From: Cystobasidiomycetes sp. EMM_F5
Lineage: Eukaryota
Direction: 5' to 3'
Assembly (NCBI GenBank): GCA_051047955.1
Contig: JBPGPT010000015.1
Location: 62,001-126,000 of the forward strand
Length of the DNA stretch: 64,000 nucleotides
Shown here one piece after another: positions 54,702-59,743 of this stretch. Positions within the stretch are counted from its first letter, which is position 1, and each line of letters starts with the position of its first letter. Made by a program: the position numbers and the translations under genes. Below the pieces are notes generated by a model. The model made no database searches. It was not told the origin of the DNA and saw only the letters and a list, made by a program, of their open reading frames with translations.

Positions 54702-54980
54702 CGACACTGCGCATGCTCGGTCGTCAGACTGACTACCAAATTCGCCTGCGCCGTAGTCGCGAATCCGATCGTCCTCGCTTTTTGTGCACGTGAGAAGCAC
54801 GACAAGACACTCCGTTGAGCCATAATCAGGCGAGGAGAGAGCTTTCAGGACTGGAAGAGAGAGATTCTATAGTGCCAAAGATGTCTGCTTGGTTGACGTT
54901 GTTTGTTATCACTTCCATGAGAATGCGGACATTTGCATGGCTTTCGGAGCGGACGATGTTGAACATATAAAATCAGGCTT

Positions 54981-55397
54981 TTGAGGGAAGACTACCCGCT
55001 ATGCTACGATGTCCGTGTCCTGAAGGTATATATGCATCGGTATAGGCAGCACTTGGCCATCTCAATTTGCACTTGCCCGTCGAACCAAATTTCCCCGCTT
55101 TTTTGGGCTGCATCCGACTATTTTTTCTACAACGATATAAGTTGCTAGAATCGATGCGATTTCGTACGGGCAACACCTGCTGTGCGGATCTGTAGCTCTC
55201 GTTTACCGCAATAACGCGGATGATCGTATGGCTTTCAGAGTAAACGATATTTGGTAAACGAATTCCGGTCTTGAAGGCAAGACCGCCCGCTACGATACCA
55301 CTTACGTGTTCTGCAGGTATATACGCATCGGTATAGGCAGCTTGGGCTATCTCACCATACATTTGCCCGTCGAACCAGATTTCCCGCTTTTTTGGGC
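54981..55397 (+). repeat. Two diverged direct copies of a roughly 127-bp unit (54981-55108, 55271-55397)
   Basis: Both copies share GGTATATAYGCATCGGTATAGGCAGC and TTGCCCGTCGAACCARATTTCCC(C)GCTTTTTTGGGC. Confidence 0.85.
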
Positions 55398-55513
55398 CAC
55401 TTTTGGGAATTCGCAAACATAGAATATGGATTGCAAATGTCAATGGGATGACATTGAATCCTCCCATTCCTCATTCGTCTAACGGTTAGGATACGGGTTA
55501 GTCTAAAATGCTA
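55167..55513 (+). repeat. Roughly 347-bp inverted repeat, left copy (upstream flank plus 5' part of tRNA-Glu)
   Basis: Near-identical reverse complement at 59397-59743. Confidence 0.93.
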
Positions 55514-55598
55514 TCCGGAATTACGAGCATTGTCTAACGTTGGCATCACCAACAGCTCTCTCACAGCCGGGGCCAGGGTTCGACTCCCTGATGGGGAA
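55468..55598 (+). tRNA. tRNA-Glu(CTC) interrupted by a 59-nt GT-AG intron (55497-55555) in the anticodon stem
   Basis: Spliced 72-mer: acceptor TCCTCAT/ATGGGGA+A, D arm GTCT-AACGGTTA-GGAT, anticodon arm CGGCT-CT CTC AC-AGCCG, T arm CAGGG-TTCGACT-CCCTG. Confidence 0.92.
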
Positions 55599-55599
55599 A

Positions 55600-55604
55600 T
55601 TTTT
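55600..55604 (+). terminator. Pol III terminator T5 of tRNA-Glu
   Basis: TTTTT starting 2 nt after the discriminator base. Confidence 0.75.
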
Positions 55605-56468
55605 GATGGTCACGACCTCACAGCATTGAGAGGCCTCACAGCCCTTTCAGTGCGACAAGCCTTCCTGAGTTAATTCCTTAAACGCTACGGCGGCTGATCT
55701 CGACAGGCTTTTCGCGACGTTTTCTTTTGTAGAACATGCTTGTATCGTCTTAGCACTGTAGCATAGACCGTCTTCATGGAAATGGCCTTTCTTTGCCCTT
55801 TTGCGCGGTTACATACATGCAAATTGTGGTCCCCGTCTCAGGCTATTCGCGGGATTTCATGGCAAGCCTGGCTTTCGGTAGGGCCGGGGTTTTCCCGATG
55901 TACGATTACAAATTGATCAGATAAAACCTTCGCGGTGCATTGTTTTCTGAATCTTGTCGCGGTACATGCCAGGGTCTTGCTTGCATCTCATTGAAGGCGT
56001 ACCAAAGTAGCGCATCATGCAGTATACAATAGTGACTTTCGTAGCAGGCTTCCAGGATGCCTGGAAGGCTCAGGATTTGTCTTGCTCACCGACAGCATTC
56101 ACGCCACCATATTGCGGGTCGTACATCTGCCCTTCCCTGATTTGCCTTCAAGACAGATGAGGTTAAAAGATAGTCTCTTTCTTATCGCTCGTAAACCAAT
56201 TCATGTAGAAAAGATGCATCCTTAAGCTTTTTCCATTCTGACAAGCATTGTAAACGGGACTTAATTCAGATTAAAATCGCTATCACTGGAGAGGCCAGCT
56301 TTCTATCGACGATTAGTTGATATCCATGAATCAAATGTACAATACTGCTTGATGCAATACAGTCACTATAGCTTGCGATTTATCGCAACAGAAAGTCCTC
56401 CCAAATTGTGTCACGTTTTCAAATTCTGTGGTCACACTTTGCGTTACTGCCAGCACTCATGTCCAACA

Positions 56469-59282
56469 ATGCCCAGAGCTGGTTCTGAACGGAGGAAGCG
56501 CATACGCGCAGCAAGAGTGGATGCAGATCCGTTCACGAGACCGGAGAATGAGACGTCAAATCCCAAGAAGCAGAAAAGTGGGAAACAGGGGTACGCTCGC
56601 GACAAGGAAATTCTTGCATTACTCGACAAGGTCAGTTGCGAGCCTAGCCGTGTGCGGCTTCGCTAATAATATATGCATAGCTACAAGCCTCTTCTGCTGA
56701 AGATCGCATCGACGCCCTTTCCGTCATCAACAATGTCGTCAACAGCTCCGATGTTGCAATGCGACGCGCTTTGCAATCCAAAAACATAGTTGGCCTACTC
56801 ATACAAAAGCTTACGGATGACAATGTTCAAGTCCAAGTCGATGTCTGCGGGGCTCTGAGAAATTTGGCAATAGAAGGCGGATTCGAAATTTGTGCGGAGG
56901 TGGGAAGCGGCTATTTCGAACGAAATCTGCATTAGCTTACATACTGCCTGAATTGCAGATGTTTAACAAGAACATCATTCGGGCGCTTTCAGCGCATTTG
57001 GAGCCTTTGAATTCAGCACTCACACCAATCCTGCAACATTCTATGTCTGGGAAGGTCAAGGCGGATGAATATACCGAATTAGTCTGGACCTGGACTGAGA
57101 ATCTCACTACACTCTTCTGCTGCATAGCGTGAGCTTATATTTTGACCACCCTTAGTCGCGGTCGACGCTGACATTGACTATCTTACAGGGAATCTTCAGA
57201 TAAAGCCTTTCGTGCTATTGCCACGCTTGACAATCTATCTACGTTACTGTACACTATTATTCTTACGCCCTCCAACGCCAAAAGTTGGCCTTATCTACCA
57301 TCTGCCGTGGCCGCCGCTGCTGCACAAACGCTTTATGTTATGACGGATGCGTCCGCATCTTCAGCACCACGGTTCCCACTTCCTCGAGATGTGTCTCGTG
57401 CAGCTGCGTATCGCCAAATACGATCTCAATTGCTGTCCGTACTGGAGCAAGCGAGTTCTATACAGCAAAGCGCAAGCAGTGCAGACGATCGGGAAGACTG
57501 GACCATGTTTACCGTGTTGATCATTGGTATTCTTCAAAATCTTGCTCGCCAGCAACCTTCGTCGTCGTCCAAGCATTCTTCCATCGATTCTGATGCTGAA
57601 CAATCGGTCCAGACATCACTGCAAGTCTTACTAAACGGACTTGCCAACGTTGATTTAGTAGCAGAAGCGAACGCTGTTCGGATCTTGGTTGAACAACCGC
57701 CATCGAGCTCATTGCTCCAAGCCAAAGAGACGAGCAGTGTCGCAGGAGAAGTATCTTCCGGCAGGAGAGTGGCAGCTTTGGTCGAGAAGCGGTGGACCCG
57801 GATACGCCTCAACCTGGAGATTCTTGCGGAGTTGGGGGCCGAGCTTGATGGAATCCTTGACGTTGAACAGGCGCAGCAAGAAGCGTACGAAGAGTGGCAC
57901 GGTATTACAAACGGAAACGGCGACAACGTTGAAATGGATAATGACGAAGTTTATACGTCTGAGTCTCTGCCAGTACCTCAGCAACGACCGACATCGCTGT
58001 CTGCAATGGCTTTTGAACATTTCTCCGGCTTACCATCTATGCTCATGCAACTCGCCCGCCCAACCAGCCTGTCGTATGCAAAGCCCGCTGTGGCCATTGC
58101 TAACACTGATGGACTCCTCGACACCCAACCAAACAGCGATCTCGCGCAATCTGCCGCCACCTATTTGCCGAACTTGACTGAACAAGTCGGTCTCATACAC
58201 GCTCGTGCTCTGGAAGCCCTCAATAATCTTCTCATCACCATCGCTCGATCTGGAGAGGCCGTGGACAGGCAAGAAGGCCCGAATGTGTCATTAGCAGAGG
58301 CAGCCGAGATCGAAGACCACGCTTTAGCTCTCGAAGATGATGGCAACGACATGGACTCCGACCTGCCGGAAGCGCGAGACGCTGGTGACAAGGCCACCGA
58401 CGGCTTATCCAAGTATATCGACGCCAACCTGCAGACTTTCCAGGGCTTGTGGGAGCAATTGTTCCAGTCGCTTCTTACACAGGCCCAGCGAGCGTGGCCT
58501 GGAGTGACGAATAATGCTACGATGCCTGTACAAGATGCCAGGACGTCTGCACTATCCGAACAGGATTTTGGCATTTCAGTTATCTTGGGCTCCATATGGA
58601 CACTAGCGAGGATGCTTTCTGGTAATTTAGTAAGTCAATTCGGTGGCTATTCAACAAGCTGTAATCTTATCGACCCTCAATCAGATCATTGGACGAGATG
58701 AGAGCAAGCTGCTTCTTCGGTTACTGCCAGCGACGGTGTCGCAGCCCAAGGCTGTAGAGTCTGCCACGAGATGCATTGGCGCTCTAGGTCAGCTTGCTAG
58801 CAGAGCCGATGTCACAATCGAGGAGAACATGGTGAGAAAGTTCGTCAGAAGCTAACGGGACGCAAGCGTAACGTCATTGCTATACTTGCTCCAAAGATTG
58901 TTGGAAATGCCATCCTTGCCCAGGCGGTCGAGCAAACAGAAGCCAACGCGAAGGAACCACACCTGGCCGCGGAGTTGACTGCGCAGGCTCTCGATTCCGT
59001 GTTCGACATTTACGGCGACGAGACAAGAGCGTATGACGAAGCTGTATTCGAAGGGGAGCTATTTCTGCAGAAATTAACAGCAATACTGCCCGCTTACCGC
59101 AAACTGGTAAGTCACACCAACTTGATCGACAAGCCAATTCAGCTCATTGGAACTCTGTACGGCAGGTGAAATCTGTGGATCGGAGAAAGCATGCTGGATC
59201 ACGGATGGCAGCTGAAGCATCCTTGGCGAATTTGCTAGAATTCATCAAGTACCGTAAGAATCTTAAGAAGGGGATTTGCTGA
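56469..59282 (+). CDS. SYO1: ARM/HEAT protein, symportin Syo1/HEATR3-like
   Basis: Basic N-terminus; LQSKNIVGLLIQKLTD...CGALRNLAIEGGFEICAEMFNKNI; ALDSVFDIYGDE; C-terminal NLLEFIKYRK. Confidence 0.78.
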
Positions 59283-59396: not shown

Positions 59397-59743
59397 TAGC
59401 ATTTTACACTAGCCCGTATCCTGACCGTGAGACGAATGAGGAATGGGAGGATTCAATGTCATCCCATTGATACTTGCAATCCATATTCTATATTTGCGAA
59501 TTCCCAAAAGTGGCCCAAAAAAGCGGGAAATCTGGTTCGACGGGCAAATGTACGGTGAGATAGCCCAAGCTGCCTATACCGATGCGTATATACCTGCAGA
59601 ACACGTAAGTGGTATCGTAGCGGGCGGTCTTGCCTTCAAGACCGGAATTCGTTTACCAAATATCGTTTACTCTGAAAGCCATACGATCATCCGCGTTATT
59701 GCGGTAAACGAGAGCTACAGATCCGCACAGCAGGTGTTTCCCG
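59397..59743 (-). repeat. Inverted repeat, right copy, ending in a truncated and mutated tRNA-Glu 5' exon plus intron start
   Basis: Minus strand reads TCCTCATTCGTCTCACGGTCAGGATACGG-GCTAGTGTAAAATGCTA, then breaks off; no 3' tRNA half follows. Confidence 0.9.

Follow-up and report, generated by a model that had tools for sequence, protein, structure and literature searches.

A probable spliceosomal-type intron in the anticodon stem of a fungal nuclear tRNA-Glu(CUC) gene

About 1.6 kb of spacer separates two divergent genes, which encode a RabGAP-TBC protein (minus strand) and an ARM-repeat-like protein (plus strand), and the locus described here is part of that spacer. The whole stretch of DNA that was analysed, 64 kb in length and called the window below, also carries a gene for a chitin synthase with a cytochrome b5 domain, which identifies the DNA as fungal. 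In the atlas, Ascomycota is the phylum most often represented in the best cluster, and on this ground only the fungus is taken to be probably an ascomycete. On the plus strand of the spacer there is a tRNA-Glu(CUC) gene in two parts, 55468-55496 and 55556-55598, separated by an insert of 59 nt (55497-55555), the coordinates being read directly off the sequence (Table 1). The probable start codon of the ARM-repeat-like gene is found about 860 nt further downstream. When its open reading frame (503 aa, 57190-58701) was searched against 5.8 billion proteins, the sole match of similar length was the protein itself, which points to a gene that evolves fast or to a lineage with poor sampling. On the other side of the tRNA gene, a minus-strand ORF of 165 aa (54973-55470) spans both units of a tandem repeat. 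It belongs to no Pfam family and its best atlas score, 0.79, is not credible; judged from the sequence, it is probably non-coding repeat and not a gene.

Table 1. Features of the split tRNA-Glu(CUC) gene and of the repeats around it (window coordinates; a dot marks features given without strand)
Feature	Position	Strand	Remarks
Older tandem copy	54870..55160	.	unit of ~290 nt, ~72-85% identical to 55161-55467 just upstream of tRNA-Glu
Inverted repeat, left arm	55167..55513	.	347 nt; ends inside the intron; arms 97% complementary
tRNA-Glu(CUC) exon 1	55468..55496	+	29 nt; acceptor 5' strand, D arm, anticodon-stem bases 1-3 (CGG)
Spliceosomal-type insert (probable intron)	55497..55555	+	59 nt, inside the 5' strand of the anticodon stem
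5' splice site GTTAGT (putative)	55497..55502	+	TTAGTC kept in two of the three copies of this stretch
Intron hairpin 1 (predicted)	55497..55538	+	42 nt; GUUAG (5' splice site) pairs with CUAAC (branch motif); inner AUGCU/AGCAU helix
Branch motif CTAAC (putative)	55534..55538	+	presumed branch A 55537, 18 nt from the end of the insert; 17 nt follow the motif
Intron hairpin 2 (predicted)	55539..55553	+	GUUGG..CCAAC; stops 2 nt before the 3' splice site
3' splice site CAG (putative)	55553..55555	+	read in the sequence
tRNA-Glu(CUC) exon 2	55556..55598	+	43 nt; rest of anticodon stem, CUCUCAC loop, 4-nt variable loop, T arm, acceptor 3' strand, discriminator A
B box GGTTCGACTCC	55577..55587	+	sole match within the 64-kb window
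T5 run, Pol III terminator-like	55600..55604	+	begins two bases after the discriminator, with one A between
Inverted repeat, right arm	59397..59743	-	counterpart of 55167-55513
Truncated, decayed paralogue of the tRNA-Glu gene	59397..59442	-	without exon 2; 3.9 kb away

ARAGORN recognises a tRNA-Glu(ctc) of 72 nt once the bases 55497-55555, and no others, are deleted from the sequence in silico; the junction then reads ...GATACGG-CTCTCTCAC.... The minimum-energy fold of the joined exons is a cloverleaf (-23.3 kcal/mol), with an acceptor stem of 7 bp, a D stem of 4 bp with an 8-nt loop, an anticodon stem of 5 bp (CGGCU/AGCCG) closing the 7-nt loop CUCUCAC, a variable loop of 4 nt, and a T stem of 5 bp. 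No damage is seen in U8, A14, the GG of the D loop, U33, the TTCGA of the T loop, the B box or the terminator. The paired 72-nt cloverleaf expected by the original prediction is thus recovered, as are its B box and T5 terminator. The position that it gave to the insert, between tRNA positions 29 and 30, stands in the frame that yields GT..AG ends, but is not unique. The junction lies in a run of G and can slide by one base, so that cutting out 55496-55554 yields an identical product and the insert is equivalently placed between 28 and 29. Apart from this single ambiguous G, no exact target-site duplication was found at the insert.

The gene is invisible to standard finders as long as the insert is in place, as had been anticipated. 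In the untouched 64-kb window, ARAGORN finds no tRNA gene with its intron mode either on or off, and no tRNA model of Rfam reaches its gathering threshold. Even at E<=10, a search of 55300-55800 against Rfam brings up no tRNA, only two sub-threshold partial matches to T-arm-like models. Such failure is expected if the insert sits outside position 37/38. The Pol III signals that can be read from sequence only, the internal B box and the downstream T run, are both present, and T runs in the insert stay below four, so that it offers no Pol III stop. The B-box motif by itself is not rarer than chance, 3.57 matches being expected in the window, and no other tRNA candidate bearing a B box was found there.

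Outside the window, a metagenome collection was scanned for the same tRNA with an insert of 44-74 nt before the anticodon loop. It returned no locus; the collection holds no close relatives, so this result is uninformative on conservation. A control scan allowing a gap of 0-30 nt returned 51 loci, all of them intronless and most of bacterial type. The mature sequence is identical to that of the tRNA-Glu in none of the 51 (best, 59 of 73 positions), and the D arm is identical in four eukaryote-type tRNA-Glu(CTC) genes of the metagenomes. The single match among prokaryote genomes (L052, 601-715, on a contig labelled Arthrobacter) was rejected as a chance D-arm-like string between two ordinary tRNA genes of a bacterial cluster.

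Direct reading bears out the signals that had been claimed for the insert: GTTAGT at its start, CTAAC at 55534-55538 and CAG at its end. Its likeness in size and signals to the introns of protein-coding genes in the window holds as well. For this comparison, 15 short segments were picked by hand from 155 listed ORF junctions, most of which are spurious. The chosen 15 join long ORFs in frame and carry the pattern GTNNG[TC] plus CTRAY; the set was thus selected on splice signals, and offers independent information only on length, spacing and weakness of structure. The 15 candidates range in length from 48 to 99 nt (median 58), which the 59 nt of the insert fit, and their CTRAY-type motif lies 6-23 nt from the intron end, a spacing that the insert shares. 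All 15 start with GTNNG[TC], by selection, and the GTTAGT of the insert conforms. The tRNA structure fixes the boundaries of the insert independently of any splice signal, so the chance of finding such signals there can be measured directly. All 59-nt segments of the window, on both strands, were examined for GTNNGT and for CTRAY placed 6-28 nt before YAG. Two of 127,882 segments pass these loose criteria, one of them being the insert, and under strict criteria the insert itself is the only one of the 127,882 to pass. For boundaries that the tRNA dictates, intron signals would arise by accident about once in 100,000 cases, and chance is not a plausible explanation of the signals. By its signals and placement, the insert is very probably a genuine spliceosomal-type intron sequence. 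A group I intron is ruled out, since those introns are far longer than 59 nt.

The insert also has a strong predicted structure, which the original prediction had not noticed. Folded alone it reaches -16 kcal/mol (z -3.32), and none of 200 dinucleotide shuffles is as stable. Against mononucleotide shuffles its z is -2.88, with 3 of 300 as stable, the 15 window introns ranging from -0.82 to +1.18. The predicted fold consists of two adjacent hairpins that together span the insert from its first base to two bases short of its end. The GUUAG at the 5' splice site is the exact complement of the CUAAC of the branch motif, and a comparable structure is present in none of the 15 protein-gene intron candidates of the window. 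This pairing could hinder the binding of U1 and U2. A precursor in which the cloverleaf and both hairpins form together is predicted at -32.6 kcal/mol, compared with -38.0 kcal/mol for the unconstrained minimum.

The spacer itself is repeat-rich and recently rearranged, and the duplications in it include a decayed partial copy of the tRNA-Glu gene; this setting had likewise been missed. In addition to the older tandem repeat just upstream of the gene, there is an inverted repeat whose 347-nt block comprises the upstream unit, exon 1 and the first 17 bases of the intron. The two arms bracket the whole ARM-repeat-like gene. In the right arm, exon 1 (59414-59442) has two mismatches, including A14 to C, and the 17 bases of the intron start (59397-59413) have two differences, with GT changed to GC. 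Past this arm, 22 nt from the D arm and the intron start have been duplicated once more, and the sequence beyond them is unrelated. The 59397-59743 copy looks like the product of a template-switch rearrangement, judging from this arrangement. No second full copy of the insert was found within the window; only 15 nt of it recur in the truncated paralogue.

The duplications give some order to these events. The intron start is present in the truncated copy, and hence the intron was already in place when the duplication happened. TTAGTC is still found in the re-duplicated piece, from which it follows that the 5' splice site of the full gene is the older state and that it is the truncated copy which decayed. 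At least three of the paralogue's four changes in 46 nt arose on its own lineage. The arms differ at nine positions in all, two in exon 1, two in the intron start and five in the 301 upstream bases. The differences therefore cluster in the tRNA and intron part (four in 46 nt; 55481-55503 against 59411-59429) and not in the upstream flank. Such clustering at the breakpoint could reflect error-prone repair or a relaxed constraint on the fragment. The flank has diverged by about 1.7% (5/301) since the duplication. At this divergence the 131-nt gene should have accumulated fewer than about 1-2 neutral changes, so that its intactness is weak evidence of selection.

In eukaryotes, tRNA introns and mRNA introns are treated as unrelated systems, with separate position rules and separate enzymes. 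The introns of tRNAs lie at position 37/38, where the endonuclease measures by a ruler mechanism, and the spliceosome normally works on Pol II transcripts. The standard view, as worded in two recent papers, is that tRNA splicing is spliceosome-independent (PMC12530127; PMC13149111). A search of the full-text literature, whose coverage excludes subscription journals and supplements, found no published case of a spliceosomal intron in a tRNA gene, and the exact phrase "spliceosomal introns in tRNA" is absent from the texts searched. The original prediction, which knew of no established tRNA case, agrees with this result; the snRNA and rRNA cases that it named are on record. A review of U6 lists spliceosomal introns in U6, U2, U5 and U1 snRNA genes and in rRNA genes, and describes many of the snRNA insertions as thought to be lineage- or species-specific (PMC5855946).

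Comparison with these systems shows likeness and difference in each case. Like the introns of fungal U6 (Schizosaccharomyces pombe, Rhodotorula), U2, U5 and U1 snRNAs, the insert is a short GT-AG intron with a branch motif in a small structured non-coding RNA, and the U6 genes, in addition, are read by Pol III. Unlike them, the host here is a tRNA, which is no part of the spliceosome. For a tRNA, therefore, reverse splicing near the active site is not a natural explanation. The splicing of S. pombe U6 is documented; for the insert, splicing is predicted from signals in the DNA. The rRNA introns are similar in being of spliceosomal type and in residing in a highly structured, abundant RNA that is not made by Pol II. 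They occur, however, in Pol I genes, at many sites and recurrently across taxa, whereas the present insert occupies one site of one Pol III-type tRNA gene. Bhattacharya et al. are said to have described, in 2000, spliceosomal introns in the rRNA genes of ascomycetes, mostly lichen-forming ones. A further parallel is offered by the introner-like elements (ILEs) of Dothideomycete fungi, which are recent intron gains with canonical signals and stable predicted structure, longer than regular introns and present in protein-coding genes as many near-identical copies (PMC3609843). The insert shares the canonical signals and is a structural outlier (z -3.3). It differs from ILEs in its ordinary length, 59 nt against the window median of 58, and in lacking a second full copy, a comparison that extends over the 64-kb window only.

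We propose, tentatively, that a nuclear tRNA-Glu(CUC) gene of this fungus acquired a U2-type (GT-AG) intron, and that the gene is live and spliced by the spliceosome; taken as a whole, this mechanism is a serious possibility that we place somewhat short of probable. From the features described we infer transcription, splicing by the spliceosome, and function of the tRNA. Pol III, directed by the A and B boxes inside the gene, would transcribe through the intron, which offers no run of four T, and stop at the T5 run. In the precursor the intron would fold as two compact hairpins, so that the acceptor, D and T arms could form from the exons unhindered. The spliceosome would then recognise GUUAGU, CUAAC and CAG, and the 59 nt would leave as a lariat. 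Joining of the exons would re-form the CGGCU/AGCCG stem, and RNase P, RNase Z, CCA addition and modification would finish the molecule. The intron was probably gained recently, possibly through an introner-like element or through reverse splicing followed by retro-insertion. The case for a live gene draws on the spliceosomal introns that fungal Pol III (U6) genes and rRNA genes carry, as reported in the U6 review (PMC5855946). Counted against it is the locus itself, a rearrangement-prone spacer with tandem and inverted duplication.

The same locus can also be read as a young pseudogene, in which one gene of a multi-copy tRNA-Glu family received a spliceosomal-type intron, by retro-insertion or as an introner-like element, and either the transcript stays unspliced or the gene is silent. 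tRNA genes are multi-copy and redundant, and a broken copy can persist. The time elapsed, as gauged by the 5 differences in 301 flanking bases, is short, and exons and signals would be expected to be intact without any selection. The tandem and inverted duplications around the locus and the decayed half-copy 3.9 kb away fit the reading, as does the absence of a tRNA precedent from the literature searched. The predicted hairpin would lock the 5' splice site together with the branch motif, and stable folds of this kind resemble those of ILEs, which spread as mobile introns (PMC3609843). Against a dead copy stand exons (72 nt), B box, terminator and three splice signals in which no defect is visible, and an intron free of internal T4 runs. 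The truncated copy, in contrast, has decayed over the same 46 nt (four changes, at least three on its own lineage). The U6 review, moreover, reports spliceosomal introns from fungal transcripts of both Pol III (U6) and Pol I (rRNA) (PMC5855946). With evidence thus on both sides, a young pseudogene is a credible reading to which we assign, as to the live gene, a little less than an even balance of belief.

The tRNA might instead be released from a longer transcript. In that case a non-coding or UTR transcript made by Pol II would cross the spacer and be spliced co-transcriptionally, and RNase P and RNase Z would free the tRNA from it. The usual substrates of the spliceosome are indeed Pol II transcripts, and a spacer of 1.6 kb between divergent genes, with the tRNA some 860 nt upstream of the ARM-repeat-like start codon on the same strand (plus), is in keeping with one. 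The gene, however, is equipped with a B box, a T5 run comes directly behind the discriminator, and no plus-strand ORF or other exon signal crosses the tRNA-Glu. A Pol II host transcript is therefore very unlikely.

Removal by proteins alone would require that the SEN endonuclease and a ligase act at an ectopic site, or that some other nuclease and ligase pair read the two-hairpin structure. Ectopic tRNA introns of the bulge-helix-bulge (BHB) kind occur in archaea, red algae (Cyanidioschyzon) and nucleomorphs, with the anticodon stem among their sites. The insert resembles them as an intervening sequence within a tRNA gene, in a stem that ectopic introns are known to use, and its predicted fold makes it a compact structured module that would draw its two ends together. 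The BHB route had been named beforehand by the original prediction as the outcome that would speak against it. Both junction frames were scanned for bulges of 2-4 nt flanking at least three central pairs, and no match was found in either frame. The scanner is very permissive: it recovered all 500 planted motifs, and 284 of 500 random sequences also gave a match. As far as the sequence goes, the BHB route is without structural basis at this insert. The site, at 29/30 or 28/29, is not the canonical eukaryotic 37/38, so that the ruler mechanism would not apply either. A perfect set of GT, CTAAC and CAG, which introns cut by SEN have no need of, would furthermore be left as an unexplained coincidence of about 1 in 100,000. 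We regard protein-only removal as highly improbable. With the BHB route excluded, it follows that, if a tRNA is made from this gene at all, only GT-AG excision can restore it.

An artefact or coincidence, that is, a mis-assembly at a repeat or a random filler insertion resembling an intron, is scarcely credible: the left arm of the 97% inverted repeat does stop within the insert, at 55513, a place prone to assembler error, but a mis-join would not yield two exons that fit together perfectly as a single tRNA, and signals at tRNA-fixed boundaries arise by chance only about once in 100,000.

The consequences differ according to whether the tRNA-Glu gene is live and spliced or dead. If it is dead, the locus offers a datable, complete spliceosomal-type intron in a gene where selection for mRNA function is not possible, and would bear on how introns are gained, whether as mobile introner-like elements or through reverse splicing of introns into abundant RNAs. 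If the proposal of a live gene spliced by the spliceosome is true, a tRNA would for the first time join the snRNAs and rRNA among non-coding RNAs with spliceosomal introns. The spliceosome would then be able to act on a Pol III pre-tRNA, and the separation of the two splicing systems would be broken. Counts of tRNA genes made with standard finders could be wrong in some fungi, and the split tRNA-Glu could be the visible tip of a class of genes in this lineage that such finders do not see.
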